Assembly (NCBI GenBank): GCA_038213805.1
Contig: JBBQSO010000086.1
Location: 1-21,676, forward strand
Source of the DNA: Planctomycetota bacterium
GTDB taxonomy: Bacteria > Planctomycetota > UBA11346
Reading direction: 5' to 3'
DNA: 21,676 nt
Position numbers and translations under genes: made by a program. Positions 10,943 through 21,676 of this stretch are shown here, piece by piece (position 1 is the stretch's first letter; each line of letters opens with the position of its first letter). The notes under the pieces are model-generated. The model ran no database searches. It saw nothing but the letters and a program-made list of their open reading frames with translations, and had not been told where the DNA came from.

Positions 10943-10948
10943 GGCGCG

Positions 10949-10988
10949 CGGGGATGCTGGTGCGGGGAATTCCAGCGGCGCGTCCCCG
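10949..10988. terminator. GC-rich hairpin between convergent operons (possible bidirectional terminator)
   Basis: CGGGGATGC (10949-10957) pairs with GCGTCCCCG (10980-10988), with an inner GCTGG/CCAGC stem. No U-tract, so intrinsic termination is uncertain. Confidence 0.4.
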
Positions 10989-10993
10989 GCATC

Positions 10994-12175
10994 CTACCAG
11001 TTCGTGGGCTCGCTGACCAGCCGCTGGATCCAGCGGAAGGTGCCACCCATGTGGCGGTCGAAACTCGGGCTGCGCGGGCCGTAGCTCCACGAGTGGCTGG
11101 CGTTCATCGGCCACTGCAGATAGGAATCCCACTGCACAGAGGGATCCAGGCCGCCGGTGGCGTGGTGCAGCTCCCAGTGGTAGGTGCCCTCCGGACCGGA
11201 GGCGGACCATTCGACGCGGTACCAGAAGCGGATTTCCTGGTCCTGGAGGGATTTGAAGAGCTGGCCGTCATCGTTGAACAGCGCGCCCATGCCCTGGTTG
11301 TTGGCCTCGAGCATGCTGCGGAAACCCTGGGTGGCGCCGGCGCCGCAGGTGATCAGGAAGGTCGATGGCCCATCGCGCAGCACGCGGAACCACGATTTGC
11401 CGGTGGATTGCACGCGCGGTTCGGCGCGGCCGGTGGCGTTGGCGATGTAAGCGGCCCTGGCCGCGGATGGGCTGCCGTAGGTGCCGTTCTCGCCCTTGCT
11501 GCCGAGCGGCTGCGGATCGGGATGGCGCAGGTAGGGCCACAGGTAGTCGCTGGCGGCGCTCTGCGCAGGATCGGCCTGGATCGGATTGTAGCAGACCGTG
11601 GGCTGGATGGCGAAGGGCGGCTGCCGCCACACGTACATCGGGCAGCGCGCGATGCCGCCTGGCGCCGGCCAGTAGGGGCGGAGCCGGACGCCATCGTGTT
11701 GGGCCGGAGTGACGTCAAAGACCGCGCGGTAGGAGTGCGGCGTGGGGTCGCTGGCTGGCGTCGAGGAATCGGGCATGGCGGTGCGCGGTCCGATCGAGCC
11801 GTCGCGCACGTCGATCCAGCCGAAGGCCTCTTCGTGGATGCGCACCGTCGCGGAGCCGCTCGCGCCGCCGCCAGGGAAGGCGTCGTTGTCGGCCGTCATC
11901 AGCGGCGGGCTGGATGGGAAGGCCGGATCCGGCGTGGTGTCCGCGGGGTCGCCGGGGGGCAGGCGCGGATAGCGGTCCCAACCGATGCGCGAGCACTCCT
12001 GGACGTAGTTGAGCGCCGCCACGAGCATGATGCGCGCCTGGACCTCCTGCAGCGTCGCGCGCGTCTCCTCGGCGTCGCTGCGGTTGCGCACCATGAAGGT
12101 CAGGGCCAGCGAGGCGAGCAGCGCCGAGATGCCGGCGACGAGGATCAGGACGGTGCCCTGGCGGGTGCGGATCAT
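10994..12175 (-). CDS. PilX/GspK-like minor pilin, 393 aa
   Basis: True start is ATG 12175 (ATGA overlap with the upstream stop). MIRTRQG|TVLILVAGISALLASLALTF has a basic leader, Gly-1 and a hydrophobic helix without Glu5, followed by the PilX-like QARIMLVAALNYV segment. Confidence 0.8.
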   Translation of the reverse strand: MIRTRQGTVLILVAGISALLASLALTFMVRNRSDAEETRATLQEVQARIMLVAALNYVQECSRIGWDRYPRLPPGDPADTTPDPAFPSSPPLMTADNDAFPGGGASGSATVRIHEEAFGWIDVRDGSIGPRTAMPDSSTPASDPTPHSYRAVFDVTPAQHDGVRLRPYWPAPGGIARCPMYVWRQPPFAIQPTVCYNPIQADPAQSAASDYLWPYLRHPDPQPLGSKGENGTYGSPSAARAAYIANATGRAEPRVQSTGKSWFRVLRDGPSTFLITCGAGATQGFRSMLEANNQGMGALFNDDGQLFKSLQDQEIRFWYRVEWSASGPEGTYHWELHHATGGLDPSVQWDSYLQWPMNASHSWSYGPRSPSFDRHMGGTFRWIQRLVSEPTNW

Positions 12176-13539
12176 GGCGAGTCCAGGTTGCGGTCGATGA
12201 TCGCGCCGGTGGCGTTGTCCCAGCGCGCCCAGCCGGTGCCGGAGTCGGGGTGCAGACGCTGCATGCGCGCGCCGCGCAGGGTGGTGCCGACGCCGGTGAA
12301 GGACAGCTCGGCGAGCTGGCCGGTCAGGGGGCTGACCCAGCGCACCTTGGCGATGTTGACGAAGTGCGCGCTCTTCAGGAAGTGCGCGACGCCGACCGTG
12401 ACCACCGGCCACTGCGCCGGGCTCTGATCCAGCACCTTGACCATCGGCAGGGACGCGGTGATGAACTGGCCCAGGGCGGAGGTCGCGGTGCTCTGGTTGA
12501 CCACGCTGTAGTCCGTGCTCCAGTGGCGGTAGTGCTCGGAGGCGAGGACGCCGGTGGTGACCGTCCGCCCTGCGGGATTGGTCACCCCGAAGCTGTTGGC
12601 GTTGCTGAACGCGTAGATGCCAAGGGTGGTCGGCCCCATGCCCGTGCCGATGAAAATGCCGTTGGTCTCGAGGAAGACCCGCGCCATGCCGCCCTGGTTG
12701 GTGTTCGCGCCGTCGCTGTAGGTGCCATAGCAGCCGTACACCGCGTTGCTGGGCAGGTAGTCGCACATGCCGTAGAAGCCGAGCGCGCGGCTGAGCCCGC
12801 GCAGCTGCCGACCGTACCACAGGTGCAGGGGGAACTCGCCGGTGCTCGCGGCGTAGCCAGCGCTGTACGGCGTCGGCGTGGTCAGCGGGTCCGCCACGAT
12901 GTTGGCGAAAGACATGAAGGTGGGATTGGTATCGGTGTTGGTGAAGATCCCGTAGCGTCCGAACCACAGCGGCGGGATGGCGCCATCTACGGCCGGAGGA
13001 TTGCCGCGCAGCTTCTCGCAGACGTTGCCGCGGAACCAGGTGCGGGGGTCGTGGGCCGCCCAGGCGTAGGTCGGGTCGAAGCCGGTGTCCTGCTCCCAGC
13101 TCGGATCGGGCGGCGTGGTGCCGCCCTGGAGGATGACCGGCGCGGCGCTGATGGTGGCCGCGCCGGCGAGGGCGCGCGGCACGCCACCTCCCGCGGGGAA
13201 GACCTGCGACAGGGGCGCGAAGGGCAGGCCGACGGTGCCGCCCCCGGGTTGGCCGACGACCAGCGGACCGAATCCCGCAGGATTGACGGCGAAGGTCTGG
13301 CGCAGTCTCTGCCCGGAGGCGTTCGGATCATCGAGGTTGGTCCAGAAGTCGAGCTGCTCGTGTGCCAGGCTGATGCCGGTGCGCATCAGCGAGTTCTCGA
13401 GCGACAGGCGGTTGGCGATGGTGATCGACTGCGAGGCGACGCGGAAGCCGGCGGTGGCGGTGAAGATCAGCACCAGCCCGAGGCTGAGCGCGATCATCAT
13501 CTCGATCAGGGTGAAGGCGGTGCGGCGCGGGTGGCTCAT
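12172..13539 (-). CDS. PilW/GspJ-like prepilin-type N-terminal cleavage/methylation protein, 455 aa
   Basis: ATG 13539 with GAAGGA RBS. MSHPRRTA|FTLIEMMIALSLGLVLIFTATAGF is a class III signal with Glu5. Lies between PilV-like and PilX-like genes. Confidence 0.85.
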   Translation of the reverse strand: MSHPRRTAFTLIEMMIALSLGLVLIFTATAGFRVASQSITIANRLSLENSLMRTGISLAHEQLDFWTNLDDPNASGQRLRQTFAVNPAGFGPLVVGQPGGGTVGLPFAPLSQVFPAGGGVPRALAGAATISAAPVILQGGTTPPDPSWEQDTGFDPTYAWAAHDPRTWFRGNVCEKLRGNPPAVDGAIPPLWFGRYGIFTNTDTNPTFMSFANIVADPLTTPTPYSAGYAASTGEFPLHLWYGRQLRGLSRALGFYGMCDYLPSNAVYGCYGTYSDGANTNQGGMARVFLETNGIFIGTGMGPTTLGIYAFSNANSFGVTNPAGRTVTTGVLASEHYRHWSTDYSVVNQSTATSALGQFITASLPMVKVLDQSPAQWPVVTVGVAHFLKSAHFVNIAKVRWVSPLTGQLAELSFTGVGTTLRGARMQRLHPDSGTGWARWDNATGAIIDRNLDSP

Positions 13540-13555
13540 GCTCGTCCTTCGGGTC

Positions 13556-15595
13556 TCAGCGCAAGATGCAGGGGATGCGCGGATCGTAGTAGTTGAAGCG
13601 CGCCACCGACGTCGCGCGCAGCCGCACCGACTTGGGTATCGGCCCACGGTCGAGCAGCTTGTTGAAGTTGCGGTCGGCGCCGTAAAGGCCGACGAAGGTC
13701 TTACGGTGGACCAAGTCCGGGCCGCTGTCCTGGGAATCGCCGTTTAGGACCTCCTGCGCGCCCATGGCGGTGCCGGTCGGCAGGTCCGCGGGCACGCCGC
13801 CCGCGCCGGGGAACCACAGCTCCGTCTTCTCGGGATTGCGGTAGCAGAACAGGTGCGGGTCGACGAAGGCGACATCGCTCATGCGACCGGAGAAGTCGCG
13901 AAAATTGCCGCTGCTGTCGGTGCGCGGGCCCGCGATCGGGTAGCGGCTGGCGTCGACCGGCGCGCTCGGCAGGGTCTCGAAGTCCTCGTATGACTGCCAG
14001 TCCGCGGTCCAGAACACGATCTCACGGCAGCGCTCGGACGGAGCGAAGGGCAGCCCCAGGTTGTAGTGGTCGAGGTCGCCCATCAGGTTGCTCACGCGGC
14101 CAGGCTGGATGGTGCCCTCGAGCTTGTTGCGGCCGCCGCTGGTCTGGTTGAGCGGGTAGGTGAAGCCGACGCCGATGTTGCGGATCGGCCGCGGTGACAG
14201 TGGTGCCCACTGCTCGGCGGTGACGCTGCCGCTGCCGAAGATGGTCCCGGCCAGCGCCGGTGAGAACAGGTCGTACTGCAGCAGCGGATAGTCGATCATG
14301 AGCGTGCGCTCGATCGGCCGCGGCACCGCCCAATCGTAGGGGAAGCTGGCGGCGAAATCCATGATCAGCTTCACGCAGCGCTCGTGGTAGTAGAGGATCA
14401 GCGCGTTGGTGAGGGGCGGGTCGCCCGCGCCGCTGCCAGCCAGACTGCCGCCCGTGACACCGTCCCAGCTCACCGCGGTGACCTTCACGCCCTTGGTGTG
14501 GAGGTCCTCGTCCATGCCGGTCGCGTCCAGCGGGTACCACGCGGTCAGGCAGGTCGCCGCGTGGCTGAGGAAGCGCATCGCCTGGACCTGCTTCCACTTC
14601 TGGTCGTCGGGAGTGCCCGGCTCGTAGGTCGGGATGCCGCCGGAATGGGGATCGTTCCAGAACGTGTCGGACAGGCCCTTCTTCTTGCAGTACCAAAGCG
14701 CCGCCTGGAGGTAGCGCACGGCCGCGGTGCGAGTCGGCCAGTCGCCGTCCGCGCCGCCGCCGAGCGGGGTCGGCGACTGGCCGGAGTCGAGCTGCCGGCC
14801 GCAGGCGTACGGGAAGTAGCCGTAGTGGACGCCTGAACCCGGGTCTGGCCAGTCGAAGACCTTCTGCAGGTCCGGATCGGTGCCAGGGATGGCGGCGCCG
14901 GGGATGCGGGTGGACTCCCAGCAGTACGCCTTGTCCTCGGCGCCGTTCCTGGGGAATTCATAGAGGTGCCAGTAATTGGTCCCGGCCGTGGTCTGCTCGG
15001 GCGGCATCCAGCCGTACTGCATGTGGATGCTGTACAGCGGCGGCGACGGGTAGGCGGCGAGGTAGGGCCAGTTCTTCAGCGGCAGACCGTGCATCGCGTT
15101 TTGCTGGGCATAGCCGGTGATGCCGATGAGCAGGCGCTGCGCCTCATTGGGTGGCGCCTCCGCCTGGCCGGTCTCCTCGGTGCTGGTGCTGGCCTGTGGC
15201 TGCGAATAGTAGATGTAGCCGCCTTCGTCGAGGATCTGCTTGATCTCGTCGTTGTCGGAATCGAGCCGGCGCGCAAGTTCGAGCGGTACCGGCATCATGC
15301 CGTAGCGGTGCGAGGAGATGCGCGCATCCAGGTCCCATGCCTGACTGCGGTAGCCGACCGCCGCCTCCCAGCAGTCGGTGCCTTCGGAATCGGCGGTGGC
15401 GTTGTCGCTGTGCGCGCTGCTGAACTGTTCAACCATCTCCTCGGCCTTGGCCGCTGCATAGAGTTGGAAGCGCGACATCTGCTGGGCCTTGAGGCCCATC
15501 GGGAACAACACCAGGATGCTGACCACCCCGAAGGCTACCAGGCCGAGCGAGATGGCGACCTCGAAGAGGGTGAAGGCGGCGCGGGGGGTGCCCAT
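13556..15595 (-). CDS. PilV/GspI-like prepilin-type protein, ~679 aa (N-terminus resembles Verru_Chthon cassette protein B)
   Basis: MGTPRAA|FTLFEVAISLGLVAFGVVSILVLFPMGLKAQQ...AAAKAEEMVE is a class III signal with Glu5 and the LFPxGL pattern. Start 15595 preferred for the short leader; ATG 15685 is an in-frame alternative. Confidence 0.82.
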   Translation of the reverse strand: MGTPRAAFTLFEVAISLGLVAFGVVSILVLFPMGLKAQQMSRFQLYAAAKAEEMVEQFSSAHSDNATADSEGTDCWEAAVGYRSQAWDLDARISSHRYGMMPVPLELARRLDSDNDEIKQILDEGGYIYYSQPQASTSTEETGQAEAPPNEAQRLLIGITGYAQQNAMHGLPLKNWPYLAAYPSPPLYSIHMQYGWMPPEQTTAGTNYWHLYEFPRNGAEDKAYCWESTRIPGAAIPGTDPDLQKVFDWPDPGSGVHYGYFPYACGRQLDSGQSPTPLGGGADGDWPTRTAAVRYLQAALWYCKKKGLSDTFWNDPHSGGIPTYEPGTPDDQKWKQVQAMRFLSHAATCLTAWYPLDATGMDEDLHTKGVKVTAVSWDGVTGGSLAGSGAGDPPLTNALILYYHERCVKLIMDFAASFPYDWAVPRPIERTLMIDYPLLQYDLFSPALAGTIFGSGSVTAEQWAPLSPRPIRNIGVGFTYPLNQTSGGRNKLEGTIQPGRVSNLMGDLDHYNLGLPFAPSERCREIVFWTADWQSYEDFETLPSAPVDASRYPIAGPRTDSSGNFRDFSGRMSDVAFVDPHLFCYRNPEKTELWFPGAGGVPADLPTGTAMGAQEVLNGDSQDSGPDLVHRKTFVGLYGADRNFNKLLDRGPIPKSVRLRATSVARFNYYDPRIPCILR

Positions 15596-15701
15596 GGGCG
15601 CCAGGGGAGCGGAGGTTCCGCCGCCGGCCGGTTCCTCGGCAAATATCGCAATGCACGCTGCTGGAACAGTTGACCTCGTGCTCATAAATAATAGACGACT
15701 C

Positions 15702-16243
15702 CGCGTGGCCGGACCGGACACGTGCATTTATGGCTATTCAAGAGGAAAAAGCTAATGAAATGCGATTCCTCGGCTTTTCGCTGAGGTGATTACGAATCAA
15801 TACGATAACGACAAATGGTGTCGTCCGGACGCGACGCGCTGACCGGCCCCGTAACCATTTGTAAGCTTCAGCCGCCAAGTGATCACAAGTCGCGGTCGCC
15901 CGATCGCGGTAGGATACACTCATTAACCGCACTCGTGGCCTTCACGTTTCACGAAAAGCGCGTGGTGGATCGGGCGTATCCCTTTGCGCTGTGCTGTGAT
16001 AAACGGGATACAGCCGGCTGCCCGCAATGCCTACGGACGTTAGCGGCTGCAGAGAGGGTGGTTCTGCTCATTTCCAGACATTCGCCATGTCGGTGGGGTG
16101 GGCCGCATCCACTTATCGCCGCTAGCCGGGTTTATTGGACAAGCGGTTTCACTACCCCGCGGCATCTCGTGATGGAGTGTGCGCGTGCATTCAGTCAGTC
16201 GAGTGCCGATGCGCCCCCGGAAGCACCGGCGCGAGCCGCATCC
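15702..16243 (+). ncRNA. Candidate large structured non-coding RNA (unassigned)
   Basis: No credible ORF; about 56% GC by hand count over 15661-16200. Back-to-back stems include two perfect 9-bp helices and multibranch junctions. Most of the non-Watson-Crick pairs seen are G-U on the + strand. Confidence 0.45.
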
Positions 16244-16245
16244 GT

Positions 16246-17094
16246 TCACGGTGTGCCAGGCCTCGTCTTCCCGGTCTTCGCCGGGATGAGCCCGCGCAGC
16301 CCGATGCGGTTCTTGGCCAGCGCCAGGTCATCCATCCATACCACGAAGCCGTCACCGACGGTGGCGCGATAGTTGCACCAGCCAAAGGACAGGGACTGGA
16401 AGACCGCGGCGATCTCGGCACCGGTGAAATTGCCGGCACCATTGTGCAGCGCTATTTCGGCAACCTCGATGCCGTTCATGAACATGCGGTAGGTCTGAGT
16501 GGCGTGGTCGACGTGCCACTCCACCAGCGTCCACTCGTCGGTGAACCGGTAGCCCGATTTTCCGGCGGTGGCGAACTCCTTGCGCGATTTCGGCTGGATG
16601 TTGTAGAGCCAGTAGTAGGTGCCGTTGCCGCCCTGGAGGGTGTCGAGCAGGCGCACGTCGATGGGGTCCTTGAAGCCGGGGCTTTCGGCGGTGCCGGAGA
16701 CCAGTGTGGAATGCAGGAAGCCGTCGGCCGCCAGCGGCACCGGCTGTTGCACGCGGAAGAACAGCCGCCCCCAGTGTGTCCCGCCTAGGTCGATCAGCAC
16801 CTTACCCGTTAGCGTTATACGGCGTGGGCCTTTGGGCACCGCATCCAGGCGCAGCGCGTGCAGGCCGGTGTGCGCGACATCGTCTACAACCTCGACCTTG
16901 CCGGTCTTCGTGAAGCCGCGGGGTATGGCGCCCGACGCGGTGCCTTCGAAGTCCTCAACAAGGCTGAGCGGACCGTTGCCGACCGGCGGGTCGGCGAAAG
17001 GCGCAGCGGCGCCCTTCGCCTCGGCCGCGGCGAGTTGAAGGGATGTGCCAGCGAGAGCGATGATCGAGACCGAGCGCAGCAGAGAGGTGGCCAT
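16246..17094 (-). CDS. Secreted Cip1-like (polysaccharide-lyase-like beta-jelly-roll) protein, ~282 aa
   Basis: Start ATG 17094 with signal peptide MATSLLRSVSIIALAGTSLQLAAA. Motif order EDFEG, VVDDVAHTGLHAL, WTLVEWHVD, FMNGIEV, LSFGWCNY, VWMDDLALAKNRIG matches the Trichoderma Cip1 core as I recall it. Confidence 0.72.
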   Translation of the reverse strand: MATSLLRSVSIIALAGTSLQLAAAEAKGAAAPFADPPVGNGPLSLVEDFEGTASGAIPRGFTKTGKVEVVDDVAHTGLHALRLDAVPKGPRRITLTGKVLIDLGGTHWGRLFFRVQQPVPLAADGFLHSTLVSGTAESPGFKDPIDVRLLDTLQGGNGTYYWLYNIQPKSRKEFATAGKSGYRFTDEWTLVEWHVDHATQTYRMFMNGIEVAEIALHNGAGNFTGAEIAAVFQSLSFGWCNYRATVGDGFVVWMDDLALAKNRIGLRGLIPAKTGKTRPGTP

Positions 17095-17310
17095 GGGGTG
17101 TTCCGGGATGACCACCCAGGGTGCGTGCGCGGCGCATGGGGCAAGCCGTGGAAGATCGGTCCGCCTACGACGTCCCAGACAGGAGCATGTGAGCATGGCG
17201 GCGGTCATTCGGCTCCTGGCCTTGCCCCGCCCTCTTCCGACACTGGTCGACCTCAGCCTAGTGTATAGGAATCAATCTTCCCAACCGCCTGCCCCGCCCA
17301 GGGATCGCCG

Positions 17311-19098
17311 ATGCCACCCGTGCGCCTGATCCTCCTCCTCATTCCCCTGCTGCAGGCCTGCGCCGCGCCGCTCACCGCCGCCGAGCCGCGCGCGGATGGC
17401 GTGGAATTCGCCGACACCGTGCGCACCTTCGATGTCGAGGAATCCACCGTCTCGCGCTTCTACAACCTGCCCTGGGCCGACGCCTGCAACGCGCGGCGGG
17501 CGCAGATGTACGCGGCCTGGCAGGCGACGTTGGCAGCGGCAGACTTCGACGCGCTGGGTGTGGCGGGCCGCGTCGACTGGCTGCTGCTGCGCACCCAAGT
17601 GACCTACGAGCTCGCCAAAATCGCGGAGGATCGCGCGCGGCTGGCGCAGCTCGCCGACCTGCTGCCGTTCCGCACGCCCGTGGCGGACCTGCTGATGTCG
17701 CGCTGGCGCCATGCACAGGTCGACCAGGCGGCGGCCGCGGCGACGCTCGCGGCCATCCCCGACCAGGTCCGCCGCATCCGCGCGCGGTTGGAACTGGGAC
17801 GCAAGGTCGCCGACAAGGATCAGGTCGCAGAGCATCCCGCGGTTGACGGCGTCAAGATGGAGGAGGTCGCGCCGCTGCCGATCACGCCGCTGCTCGCGCT
17901 GCGCGCGACCCAGACCATCGCGGCGATGCGCGACGCGACCAAGGCCTGGTACGAGGCCTATGATGGGGCCCAGCCGGGCTTTTCCTGGTGGATGAAGTCT
18001 CCGTACGAGCAGTCCGAGAAGGCGCTCGACGAGTTTGTGAAGTACCTGCGCGAGGACTGCGCCGGGTTGAAGGGCAAGGACGAGGACCCGCTGCTCGGCG
18101 AGGCGCTCGGCGCCGCCGGCTTGGCGCGCGATCTCGCCAAGGAGTTCCTGCCGTACGCCCCGGATGAGCTGCTGGCGATTGGTGAACGCGAGTTCGCCTG
18201 GTGCGAGGCACGCATGCGCGAGGCGGCCAAGGCAATGGGCTGTGGCGACGATTGGCATGCGGCGCTGAACCGGGTGAAGGCGGATTTCGCTCCGCCCGGT
18301 GAGCAGGACGCGTACATCGCCAGCCAGGCCGCCGAGGCCATCGCCTTCGTCACGAAGCGCGACCTGGTCACCGTGCCACCGCTGTGCGAGGAGACCTGGC
18401 GCATCAAGCTGATCTCCAGCGACGCCCAGCGGCTGACGCCATACGTGGCCTACGACGGCATGAACGTGCTGGCGGCCTACGCGCGCGAGGACATGAGCAA
18501 CGCCGACAAGCTGATGAGCATGCGCGGCAACAACCGCCATTTCACGCGCCTCACCACCGCGCATGAGCTGATCCCTGGCCATCACCTGCAGAGCTGGTAC
18601 GCGCAGCGCTTCCGCGCCTACCGCGGCGAATTCACCACGCCGTTCCTGGTCGAGGGCTGGGCGCTGTACTGGGAGATGGCGCTGTGGGACCAGGGCTACG
18701 CACGCTCGCCCGAGGACCAGGTCGGCATGCTGTTCTGGCGCATGCACCGCGCAGCGCGCATCATCGTCACGCTCAAGTTCCACCTTGGGCAGATGACCCC
18801 GACGCAGATGGTCGACTTCCTGATCGGGCGCGTCGGCCACGAGCGCTTCGGCGCGACCAGCGAGGTGCGCCGTTTCATCAGCGGTGACTATGCGCCGCTC
18901 TACCAGTGCGGTTACATGATCGGCGGCCTGCAGCTGCGCGCCCTGGCCAAGGAGCTGACCGCGACGGGCATGACCACCAAGCAGGTCAACGACGCCGTGC
19001 TGCATTGCGGGACGATCCCGGTCGAGCTGATCCGCGCCAGCCTGCGCGGAGTGCCGCTGGGGCGGGAGTCACGGGCGGCGTGGCGCTTCGATGGTTGA
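17311..19098 (+). CDS. DUF885 family protein (putative secreted Zn metallopeptidase), 595 aa
   Basis: AHELIPGHHLQ, FLVEGWALYWE, RAARIIV, EVRRF and YMIGGLQL are DUF885 hallmarks. N-terminal signal, possibly a lipobox (LQAC). Confidence 0.9.
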   Translation: MPPVRLILLLIPLLQACAAPLTAAEPRADGVEFADTVRTFDVEESTVSRFYNLPWADACNARRAQMYAAWQATLAAADFDALGVAGRVDWLLLRTQVTYELAKIAEDRARLAQLADLLPFRTPVADLLMSRWRHAQVDQAAAAATLAAIPDQVRRIRARLELGRKVADKDQVAEHPAVDGVKMEEVAPLPITPLLALRATQTIAAMRDATKAWYEAYDGAQPGFSWWMKSPYEQSEKALDEFVKYLREDCAGLKGKDEDPLLGEALGAAGLARDLAKEFLPYAPDELLAIGEREFAWCEARMREAAKAMGCGDDWHAALNRVKADFAPPGEQDAYIASQAAEAIAFVTKRDLVTVPPLCEETWRIKLISSDAQRLTPYVAYDGMNVLAAYAREDMSNADKLMSMRGNNRHFTRLTTAHELIPGHHLQSWYAQRFRAYRGEFTTPFLVEGWALYWEMALWDQGYARSPEDQVGMLFWRMHRAARIIVTLKFHLGQMTPTQMVDFLIGRVGHERFGATSEVRRFISGDYAPLYQCGYMIGGLQLRALAKELTATGMTTKQVNDAVLHCGTIPVELIRASLRGVPLGRESRAAWRFDG

Positions 19099-19224: not shown

Positions 19225-20079
19225 ATGAACGCACGCCTGCACGGTCTCCTCGCGGTGGCGATCTTGATCTGTGCCGCTTGGCCGCGCTGCGGCGCGGTCG
19301 AGACCACGGTCGCCGCCGATGTCGCCTACAAGACTGGCCCGGCCCTGAGCGAGTACGAACGGACGCGCTGCGCGCTCGACGTCTACGCGCCGGCCGGGGC
19401 GAAGGACCTGCCCTGCGTGGTGTGGTTCCACGGCGGCGCGCTGACCGAGGGGGACAAGCACAGCGTGCGGGCCGGCGCCCGGGCGCTCGCGCAGGACGGC
19501 GTGATCGTGGCCGCGGTCAACTACCGCCTCAGCCCGCGCGCCCCGTATCCCGCCTATGTCGAAGATGCGGCCGCGGCCGTCGCGTGGGTGCGCCAGCACG
19601 CCACCACCTATGGCGGCGATCCGCGGCGGGTCTTTGTCGCTGGGCACTCCGCCGGCGGCTACCTCGCGGCGATGGTCTGCGCGGACCCGCGCTGGCTGAA
19701 GCCCCATGACCTGATGCCGCACGACCTCGCCGGGGTCATTCCGCTCAGCGGACAAATGGCCACGCACAACACCATCCGCGGCGAGCGCGGCCTGACCCCC
19801 ACCACCATCCTCATCGACGACGCCGCGCCGCTGGGCCACGCCGGCAAGGACTCGCCGCCGTGGTTGGTGCTGTACGCCGAGCATGACATGACCCTGCGCG
19901 GTGACGAGAACCGCTACTTCGCCGCGGCCCTGACCGCCGCTGGCCACACCCAGGTCGAGATCCACGAGATGGCCGGGTATGATCACGGCGGCATTGGTGG
20001 CCGGCTCGGAGAGCCGGACGATGCGGTGCGCGCGAAACTGGTGGGGTTCATCGCGCGAGCTGCGCTGGCCGGTCGCTGA
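19225..20079 (+). CDS. Secreted alpha/beta hydrolase (HSL/BD-FAE-like esterase), 284 aa
   Basis: LDVYAP, VVWFHGGAL oxyanion motif, VNYRLSP, nucleophile elbow GHSAGG, AEHD and GYDH catalytic Asp/His candidates; signal peptide. Confidence 0.92.
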   Translation: MNARLHGLLAVAILICAAWPRCGAVETTVAADVAYKTGPALSEYERTRCALDVYAPAGAKDLPCVVWFHGGALTEGDKHSVRAGARALAQDGVIVAAVNYRLSPRAPYPAYVEDAAAAVAWVRQHATTYGGDPRRVFVAGHSAGGYLAAMVCADPRWLKPHDLMPHDLAGVIPLSGQMATHNTIRGERGLTPTTILIDDAAPLGHAGKDSPPWLVLYAEHDMTLRGDENRYFAAALTAAGHTQVEIHEMAGYDHGGIGGRLGEPDDAVRAKLVGFIARAALAGR

Positions 20080-20082
20080 GCG

Positions 20083-20502
20083 TCAGCGCATGCGGGAGCG
20101 GAAGGTCTCGAACAGCTGCCAGCAGCTGCCGGCCGGAATAGCCGGGCCCGGGCCGGTGAAGGAGTGGTTGAGAAATGCGTCGTAACCCGGGGTGCTGAGT
20201 ACCTGTGGATCATCGAGGTCGCGGAACGCCATGGACCAGGTCGGGAAACGCGTCTCGGCCTGTTCTCCTTGCAGCAGGATCATGCAGCCGCGGTGCCGCC
20301 GATCGGTGGCTATCCGCTCGTAGAGAGTCGTCACGACCTCCCGTCCGCCTTCCAGGCACTGCATGAAGTTGCCGCCTTTGTAGAGCAGAATGCCGGTGAT
20401 GCCGAGCGCCGTGTTGGTGGCGCGGGCGCGTTCGAGCAGGTCGAGAAGGTCCTGGTTTGAGAAGGGAATCGTGGCGGAGCTGACATAGATGAGGTGGTGC
20501 AT
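20083..20502 (-). CDS. Stand-alone BLUF blue-light sensor, 139 aa
   Basis: Start ATG 20502. LIYVSSA (Tyr), NTALGITGILL, FMQCLEG (Gln), IATDRRH and FPTWSM (Trp/Met): the BLUF signature residues are present. Confidence 0.93.
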   Translation of the reverse strand: MHHLIYVSSATIPFSNQDLLDLLERARATNTALGITGILLYKGGNFMQCLEGGREVVTTLYERIATDRRHRGCMILLQGEQAETRFPTWSMAFRDLDDPQVLSTPGYDAFLNHSFTGPGPAIPAGSCWQLFETFRSRMR

Positions 20503-20582
20503 AGGTGGGCGCTGCGGAGTGGGGCGGAGTGATGCGGCGCAGGGAGTCTGCAACACGGCGGGTTCGCCGTCAAACCTCCGTC

Positions 20583-21676
20583 TCAGGGTTTCAGCGCGCC
20601 CCTGCCCGCCTGTGGCGCCACGAACGCCGGTATCACATAGCTGTACGCCGCATACCGGATCTCACTCCACGCCAGCTCGCCCTCCGCACGTCCCGGCACC
20701 AAGGGATGGTGCACCGGCACGCACATCACGCGCATTCGGATCGCCGAACGACCGTGTGTCAGGTCGCGCGGCAGCAGGAATTCGTCGTCGCGGAAGCGAC
20801 GGTTGGAGGTGCGGACGTCGTGCTCGCTGGCGCCGAGCTCGCCCTTGGGATCGGAGGACACCCAGGAGTTCGAGCCCGCCAGGTACCAGGTGCCAGCCGC
20901 CTGCCACGTGGCGCTGCCGCCCGTGGCGGCGCCGTCCGCGACCCACACCTCGGCGCGCTGATCGGGCAGCGCGTAGTCCAGGGTGCGGCGCAGTAGCACG
21001 CCGACGTTCGCGGGGTCGATGGCGAGGGTGAACTCCGAGGTGCCGGCGGTCTTCCGTGCCGTCATGGTCTCGGGCGCCTGGACCTGCTTGCCGAGCACGG
21101 TGTCGACGCCGATCTCGTACAGCGAGGTGATCTGGTAGGGGGGCGAAGCGGCGGGCGAGGCGTAGCGGTGCGCGGTCTCGTTCGCCGCGTCGCCGATCTC
21201 CAGTGCGTCGGTCTTCACCAGCGACGCCGCCGGCAAACCGTACCAGTACGCAACGGTGCGGTAGTGTTCGGTCGACTCGTCGGTACCGCCGTGCTCCATC
21301 TGGATGAGCGCATTGCTGCCGAAGGGCATGAGGTCGCCGAGCAGGAAGCGGTAGCCCGACTCGATCATGTCTTCGGGTCCCTGCGCGTCCTTGCGGTTGC
21401 GCGCGCCGACCGGGTGCCCGGCGAAGGGCAGCGTCATGGTCACGCCGCCCCAGTAGTCGCCGCCGCCGCCCCACTCCTCGCTGCCGGTGCCCTGCACCTG
21501 CGGGCTGCGGCTGTCGTCGAAGAAGAAGCGCGGATCGCCCTCAAGCGTGCCCAGATCGGCGCGGTCCGAAAAGACGAACGTGGTCCCGACCAGGCTGCCC
21601 GACCACACCGCGCTGCCCTCTTCACCGCGGGAATCGAGCAGCACCAGGTCCTTACCCGGCGTGGGCGTGCCCTGGT
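20583..21676 (-). CDS. DUF2961 / GH172-like protein, C-terminal part (5' end beyond the window)
   Basis: LEGDPRFFFD...QGTGSEEW matches the DUF2961 EGD...GTGxEDY motifs; also YRFLLGDLMPF, MEHGG and VAYWY. The frame stays open to the window edge (QGTPTPGKDLVLLD). Confidence 0.8.
   Translation of the reverse strand, partial: QGTPTPGKDLVLLDSRGEEGSAVWSGSLVGTTFVFSDRADLGTLEGDPRFFFDDSRSPQVQGTGSEEWGGGGDYWGGVTMTLPFAGHPVGARNRKDAQGPEDMIESGYRFLLGDLMPFGSNALIQMEHGGTDESTEHYRTVAYWYGLPAASLVKTDALEIGDAANETAHRYASPAASPPYQITSLYEIGVDTVLGKQVQAPETMTARKTAGTSEFTLAIDPANVGVLLRRTLDYALPDQRAEVWVADGAATGGSATWQAAGTWYLAGSNSWVSSDPKGELGASEHDVRTSNRRFRDDEFLLPRDLTHGRSAIRMRVMCVPVHHPLVPGRAEGELAWSEIRYAAYSYVIPAFVAPQAGRGALKP

Follow-up and report, generated by a model that had tools for sequence, protein, structure and literature searches.

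Large non-coding RNAs of bacteria include OLE, GOLLD, ROOL, HEARO and raiA. An earlier note on the planctomycete DNA studied here had proposed that positions 15702-16243 encode a highly structured RNA of about 540 nt, and in this claimed size and in its multi-stem look the interval is similar to these RNAs. It differs from them, however, in that the 540 nt are not conserved, the z-score for folding of the entire interval is near zero, and no match to a large RNA was obtained with Rfam.

The interval lies beside a cassette of genes for prepilin-type proteins. In variable type IV pilin-like loci the N-terminal segment is conserved and the remainder diverges. The cassette shares with such loci, and with the Verru_Chthon cassette (NCBIfam TIGR02598), an N-terminus of the FTLFEV type, and the first 179 nt of its pilin-like gene are 85% identical to the corresponding stretch in a sister genome. 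Other common properties are the presence of many paralogous cassettes and an upstream spacer that differs from cassette to cassette. The cassette is unlike pilins in the size of its proteins, which at 650–800 residues are far larger, and in family scores that stay below the cut-off. No literature was found under the name "Verru_Chthon cassette" and, with respect to intergenic regions and non-coding RNA of Planctomycetes, the available part of PMC10632474 contains nothing bearing on the interval.

Candidate structured RNA motifs have been obtained by comparative genomics of intergenic regions (e.g. Weinberg et al. 2010, PMC2864571). A core of 149 nt within the interval is like such motifs in that a consensus fold is predicted for it, substitutions keep its pairs, one strand is preferred and a coding signal is lacking. 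Motifs of this kind, however, rest on many independent sequences, whereas the core rests on two, both from sister genomes.

The pilin-like cassette and its upstream spacer

The window, i.e. the whole stretch of 21,676 nt that was analysed, is contig C86 of a 5.5-Mb assembly of 180 contigs (G000, referred to below as the own genome). The interval and its surroundings comprise the following features:

13556–15595, minus strand: gene for a 679-residue prepilin-type protein, first gene of the cassette (FTLFEV N-terminus in the translation; probable start ATG at 15595)
15596–16245, no strand: non-coding spacer of 650 nt that separates two minus-strand genes and contains the interval 15702-16243 (from the ORF list)
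16246–17208, minus strand: gene for a 320-residue protein, upstream of the spacer (weak Cip1/polysaccharide-lyase-like match below the cut-off)
17311–19098, plus strand: DUF885 gene, where the conserved right flank begins (Pfam DUF885, E 1.9e-49)
19225–20079, plus strand: esterase gene (GC3-based gene call)
20083–20556, minus strand: BLUF protein gene (GC3-based gene call)

The 679-residue protein has NCBIfam matches to PilV and to Verru_Chthon cassette protein B, both sub-threshold; its family has 22 matches in the own genome, and 11 N-terminal copies. The next protein of the cassette, encoded by 12172-13647, scores 23.8 bits with Pfam N_methyl (cut-off 21.2), and the 320-residue protein reaches 18.5 bits against a Pfam cut-off of 27, its gene having a GC3 of 0.81. 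Further into the cassette, two long ORFs of the minus strand, 10994-12967 and 12172-13647, share about 800 nt in different frames, and the crude gene caller left 10943-12171 uncalled; a gene boundary or a frameshift is in question within 10994-13647. Towards the right end of the window, the gene with the BLUF (blue-light sensor) domain is located between the esterase gene and a DUF2961 gene (20583-21644).

Both genes that flank the spacer are on the minus strand, and the interval therefore sits between co-directional genes. Its earlier description as divergent from the pilin cassette is true only for a transcript of the plus strand. The ORF stretch of 132 nt that precedes the ATG at 15595 (15596-15727) has a GC3 of 0.61, against 0.91 in the pilin-like gene, from which we conclude that 15595 is the likely start of this gene and that 15596-15727 is non-coding. 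The small ORFs within the spacer each have a GC3 of 0.52–0.66, compared to 0.81–0.91 in the flanking genes. Pfam matches could not be found for the six small ORFs of the spacer, and a tblastx comparison of the spacer with the own genome and with 113 loci yielded noise only; with a flat GC3, no Pfam match and no translated similarity in these collections, a small protein was rejected as an identity of the spacer. As the earlier note had rightly observed, the interval has a lower GC content than the flanking genes (0.58, and 0.535–0.59 in 200-nt windows, versus 0.635–0.745, with a genome value of 0.69).

The RNase P RNAs of the own genome and of the sister genome (G010) are 100% identical. Contig C368 of G010 is 81-89% identical to the window from 17227 rightwards, and 15579-17226 of the window, i.e. 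the gap and the gene for the 320-residue protein, is replaced there by 1039 nt without a coding-like ORF; the 320-residue protein gave only noise in a tblastn search of this G010 spacer. In a second relative (G003) the flanks are conserved and the middle is rearranged. The best matches of the 320-residue protein in G010 and G003, with 56% and 49% identity, are encoded on other contigs or at other places, and the closest paralogue in the own genome (C10:88781-89584, 56%) has an in-frame TAG. The presence of this gene at the locus looks like a gain in the own genome or a loss in the sisters.

The DUF885 proteins of the own genome and G010 share 92% of their residues, and 85% of the 4-fold degenerate sites of their genes are identical (262/307). 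In the pilin-like gene only 64% of 208 such sites are identical, with 44% expected from composition, and identity in 160-nt windows of the whole-gene alignment ranges from 51% to 83%. The lower value at 4-fold sites, compared to the DUF885 flank, suggests that the cassette and its spacer form a deeply diverged, exchangeable segment. From this divergence we estimate that neutral non-coding DNA of the segment would be expected to be about 53% identical. By sequence comparison, the region 13556-17226 of the window has the look of a surface-protein locus that is hypervariable or exchangeable.

Rearrangement of the locus between the sister genomes, and the fact that the adjoining gene for the 320-residue protein is specific to the own genome at this place, would fit a spacer that is the remnant of a decayed gene or a scar left when cassettes were exchanged. 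The coding signals described above speak against a decayed gene, since translated similarity (own genome, 113 loci) and Pfam matches are lacking, GC3 is flat at 0.52-0.66, and a GC of 0.58 is well below that of coding DNA. We regard such an origin as the least probable of the explanations considered here.

Folding and identity of the interval

All ten stem pairs listed in the earlier note are present in the interval at the positions given for them. Their sum, however, does not amount to an unusually stable overall fold. The minimum free energy (MFE) of the plus strand is -209.2, compared to -204.1 +/- 7.1 for dinucleotide shuffles, which served as the reference for all single-sequence folding scores (z -0.72; 22 of 100 shuffles as stable), and the minus strand behaves in the same way (z -0.69; 26/100). 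Thus the z-score is near zero on each strand, which speaks against a structured unit of 540 nt. In addition, the plus-strand MFE structure has an ensemble frequency of about 0, with a centroid of only -144.5. The four-way junction that had been described is, on the plus strand, one long hairpin, and a multiloop is formed on the minus strand only.

Short hairpins are mildly enriched in the interval. Perfect inverted repeats number 37 versus 23.8 in shuffles for k=6 (18/500), 12 versus 6.3 for k=7 (37/500), 5 versus 1.6 for k=8 (22/500) and 2 versus 0.43 for k=9 (44/500). Likewise, when pairs are restricted to a span of at most 50 nt, the interval has a z-score of -2.54 on the plus strand (1/100) and -1.40 on the minus strand, and the whole gap 15596-16245 of -2.04 (2/100) and -0.46, respectively. 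These values were compared with those of all 41 other gaps of 450-900 nt with a GC of at most 0.62 that the crude gene caller left in the own genome. On their better strand, 13 of the 41 reach -2.04 and 11 reach -2.54 (median -1.23); among co-directional gaps, 5 of 23 reach -2.04. The own gap, when run through the same pipeline, scored -1.97 / -1.09. As 13/41 comparable gaps equal this hairpin excess, the caveat of the earlier note that other intergenic regions also fold was correct.

Some low-GC gaps elsewhere in the genome have much lower scores. Gaps C17:3329-3936 and C5:92300-92997 have span-50 z-scores of -6.3/-7.2 and -4.2/-4.0, and gaps C36:38522-39016 and C18:54759-55283 contain 120-nt windows with z-scores of -7.37 and -4.64 and have no Rfam match. 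Judging by these predicted folds, the four gaps may be better candidates for non-coding RNAs or terminators than the interval 15702-16243.

Windows cut by hand around the hairpins gave z-scores of -1.0 to -3.2 on the plus strand and of +0.4 to -2.2 on the minus strand. In an unbiased scan with 52 windows of 120 nt the strongest signal was on the minus strand (15840-15959, z -4.08), and became weaker when the window was re-cut to 15818-15912 (z -2.22, 5/200). The plus-strand preference proposed earlier holds for the hand-cut hairpins and for the consensus fold of the 149-nt core described below, but not for the strongest unbiased window. Two local hairpins deserve separate listing:

15830–15908, minus strand: local hairpin, -40.7 kcal/mol (most negative window of the unbiased scan; plus strand of the same stretch z +0.51)
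16039–16136, plus strand: long hairpin followed by TTTATT (16131-16136), terminator-like (closing stem 16041-16047/16118-16124; z -1.53)

The first of these is without significance after a choice among 52 windows, and two of eight control gaps hold stronger windows. The second occurs in the own genome only, with no counterpart in G010, and is absent from the output of a terminator scan, which found a single terminator-like site, inside the pilin gene. An intrinsic terminator of the gene for the 320-residue protein, which would follow the stop at 16246, was rejected, as the scan finds none in the spacer and the hairpin at 16208-16242, with a minus-strand z-score of +0.36, lacks a U run. A scan of the spacer with the promoter consensus gave no sigma-70-like site on either strand; the TTGACC-N16-TAGACG element that had been considered promoter-like is not among the sites that pass, of which there are none. 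As positive controls, the RNase P RNA and the tmRNA of the own genome had z-scores of -1.97 and -4.28. The thermodynamic test is hence a weak one, since a genuine RNase P RNA scores only -1.97.

No member of a known RNA family could be identified. The 4227 models of Rfam 15 gave no match at gathering score in the whole window; at E<=10 the only match in 15400-16500 was Guanidine-III, at noise level (E 8.1; 12.9 bits, where the threshold is 36), and neither the core of the own genome nor that of G010 gave any. A tRNA/tmRNA scan of the window was negative as well. Several other identities were considered and rejected. A REP-like repeated hairpin does not fit, because the gap is single-copy in the own genome by blastn and nhmmer, none of its 14-mers has over 8 occurrences, and those that are frequent are GC-rich words. 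An inverton would have a bounding inverted repeat, and there is none, the best distant pair being 20 nt at 75%. For a plasmid or phage origin, matches were found neither in plasmid and phage collections nor by distant blastn.

Conservation of the spacer and of its core

A DNA search with the gap was negative in the 10 same-genus genomes (0/10) and in 47 family genomes (0/47), and among 60 relatives gave only three GC-rich matches of 23-43 nt, in three genomes. In a control search with the own RNase P RNA, matches were found in 56 of the 60 relatives and in 9 of the 10 genomes of the genus (87-100% identity), and a conserved RNA in the gap would therefore have been seen by the same search. Searches with nhmmer and blastn of 94 loci (421 kb) with relatives of the cassette and its flanks, including metagenome contigs, revealed nothing beyond the three short matches.

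The upstream regions of 11 paralogous cassettes in the own genome share no sequence. Upstream of orthologous cassettes, the neighbouring genes encode an ECF sigma/anti-sigma pair (gap of about 500 nt), NadA (about 650 nt) or an unnamed product (about 230 nt), the ECF sigma/anti-sigma and NadA assignments being read from translations. In these sequences, long spacers are usual upstream of such cassettes, and their sequences are not shared. The putative sigma and anti-sigma factors correspond to two divergently oriented ORFs before an orthologous cassette (L006 476-1003 and 3-479; G007:C26), and their presence beside it is a possible clue to the control of such cassettes.

The earlier note had offered, as its alternative, a long structured leader of the pilin operon. 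This idea, and with it a cis leader or riboswitch in general, found no support: nothing recurs upstream of orthologous or paralogous cassettes, and the consensus fold described below is on the strand opposite to that of the operon.

One part of the spacer does have a counterpart in the sister genome:

15906–16054, plus strand: conserved core, 149 nt (sole part of the spacer that can be aligned with the syntenic spacer of G010, L105:1001-1153)

It was recognized with a covariance model (R1) built from 15895-16018 alone; two further models (R2 and R3) are two-sequence models. In the 60 relatives R1 had two matches below E = 1, one of which, with 21 bits, is inside the 1-kb syntenic spacer of G010 and in the same orientation. 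When R1 was run unfiltered, no other match in 43 kb scored above 12 bits, and 58 matches at E<=10 were obtained in these 43 kb versus 10 expected, so that E-values of such short-calibrated models are about six-fold too optimistic on GC-rich DNA. Nevertheless, a match whose score would be met at any place about once in 60 genomes fell in the syntenic spacer and in the same orientation, and we consider the homology with G010 to be real. In agreement with this, Smith-Waterman comparison aligns 15904-16051 (148 nt) with L105:1001-1153, and none of 300 shuffles scores as high; 78 of 129 alignment columns are identical, with an overall identity of 54-60%. The spacer to the left and right of the core cannot be aligned (227/300 and 176/300 shuffles score as high). 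The interval thus has a homologue for 148 of its 542 nt and none for the other 394 nt (15702-15903 and 16052-16243), the syntenic spacer of G010 included.

R1, R2 and R3 revealed no further member, whether among the 60 relatives, in 10 genomes of the genus, 47 of the order/family and 150 of the phylum, or among 99 loci; within the genus, the core was not found in the 8 other genomes, whose assemblies are 62-89% complete. The best extra matches, two in the 47 order/family genomes, are both inside coding ORFs, an assignment of weak model matches that leaves out a match in G030 and five weak matches in phylum genomes.

In our view, the interval is not one RNA of 540 nt. It is true that its stems are all present, that the span-50 z-score on the plus strand is -2.54 and that the hand-cut plus-strand windows are all negative, as they would be if the whole of 15702-16243 were one large strain-specific structured RNA of this strand. 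With the near-zero global score and ill-defined ensemble, the 394 nt without a counterpart, similar features in about one of every three to four comparable gaps, no Rfam match and no promoter, we consider such an RNA very improbable.

For the core the evidence is less one-sided. RNAalifold was run on a MAFFT alignment of 15895-16055 with G010 that was not fitted to any structure, and the following helices were predicted, with coordinates converted from the columns of alignment A4:

15906–15930, plus strand: predicted core hairpin
15932–15948/16036–16054, plus strand: predicted long core helix
15964–15975/16020–16031, plus strand: predicted inner core helix
15977–15988/15995–16010, plus strand: predicted inner core hairpin

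The consensus of the plus strand has an energy of -29.05 kcal/mol and 42 pairs, and that of the minus strand -14.05. In the plus-strand consensus, 9 pairs have two-sided and 8 have one-sided changes, and pairing is retained in all of them; three of the two-sided changes fall in ungapped blocks of alignments made from sequence only. The one-sided changes yield G-U pairs on the plus strand, where they would be A-C on the minus strand. Column shuffling gives a z-score of -3.7 for the plus strand (0/500) and of -0.46 for the minus strand (159/500), and simulations that preserve dinucleotides give -3.9 (0/300) and -0.3 to -0.5, respectively. Five of six alignment variants agree, with plus-strand z-scores of -2.5 to -4.15, and the minus strand is never below -1.14. 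As a control, 104 windows of similar identity were taken from four pilin-gene alignments: two reach -2.5, one reaches -3 and none reaches -3.7.

This combination could point to a small structured RNA of about 150 nt on the plus strand (15906-16054), directed away from the cassette and common only to the own genome and G010. The predicted RNA would act in trans as a small RNA or be what is left of a cis leader, and the other parts of the 540 nt would be plain spacer. Besides the strand-specific consensus scores, the two-sided and one-sided substitutions and the coding controls, it is in favour of such an RNA that the core of the own genome, folded alone, adopts the consensus architecture and that its two copies have no similarity at the protein level. 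As arguments against a plain spacer, the patch is the only alignable part, its homology is real, and the thermodynamic test, by which even RNase P RNA reached only -1.97, has low power. The copy in G010 is situated in the divergent spacer between cassette and DUF885 gene, about 360-510 nt upstream of the latter and pointing towards it.

Several observations, on the other hand, make us doubt a small RNA. The comparison involves two sequences only, with an SCI of about 0.5 at most (0.32-0.50), and the sixth alignment variant has a z-score of only -1.19. The G010 copy has an MFE structure without the long helix, and as single sequences the cores have fold z-scores of -1.55 (own genome, 14/200) and -0.38 (G010, 61/200). 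A G-INS-i alignment breaks 14 of the 37 pairs that the single-sequence structure contains (P 0.18). The perfect 9-bp closing stem of the earlier note is mostly deleted in G010, and the arms of the GTATCCC/GGGATAC hairpin (TATCC/GGATA) are kept without covariation. The identity of 54-60% is, moreover, near the neutral estimate of about 53%. Neither a promoter nor a shared terminator is present, neither copy has an Rfam match, and no further member occurs in the genus (8 others, 62-89% complete), in order/family or phylum genomes or in the loci. On balance, we consider the small RNA a possible but doubtful interpretation of the predicted fold.

The arms of TATCC...GGATA and the CGTTTCA-GAAAA block are identical in both genomes, and the loop differs in sequence and length. 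Since the spacer is directly upstream of the cassette, conservation of this kind could also reflect elements acting at the DNA level, with the inverted repeat and the block as operator or promoter, or a minus-strand leader hairpin at 15830-15908, where the strongest unbiased local fold is found. However, the own genome has the conserved motif words at this locus only, and the fetched loci that contain them are all copies of this locus or of that of G010, which gives no signal of a regulon. The minus-strand hairpin has a z-score of -2.2 after the choice among 52 windows and is outside the conserved patch, and the minus strand has a consensus fold z-score of -0.46 and no sigma-70-like site. Elements of either kind appear improbable to us, though less so than the 540-nt RNA.

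Interpretation and significance

We favour, at a probability of roughly 55%, the interpretation that the interval is an ordinary non-coding spacer, specific to its lineage and evolving fast, within a variable pilin-like locus, and that the fold signal of the core is a false positive of a two-sequence comparison. By its position, the spacer would carry the 3' end region of the transcript of the gene for the 320-residue protein, and, for the pilin-like cassette, a promoter and 5' leader. The short hairpins of the spacer would be a common trait of long low-GC spacers in this genome, and the 148-nt patch would be homology left over in a deeply diverged segment, with an identity close to the neutral level.

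A new structured RNA of 540 nt would have been a notable find in a phylum that has received little study, and the evidence falls short of it. If the small-RNA interpretation were true after all, which we think doubtful, the core would be an orphan small RNA restricted to the genus and linked to the variation of surface structures in uncultured Planctomycetota, kept through deep allelic divergence by structure-preserving substitutions. It would then be one more orphan small RNA candidate, with far thinner support than published motifs. For the organism itself, the locus serves as a worked example: hairpin-rich, low-GC spacers are common in its genome, and are not to be read as RNAs unless they are conserved.
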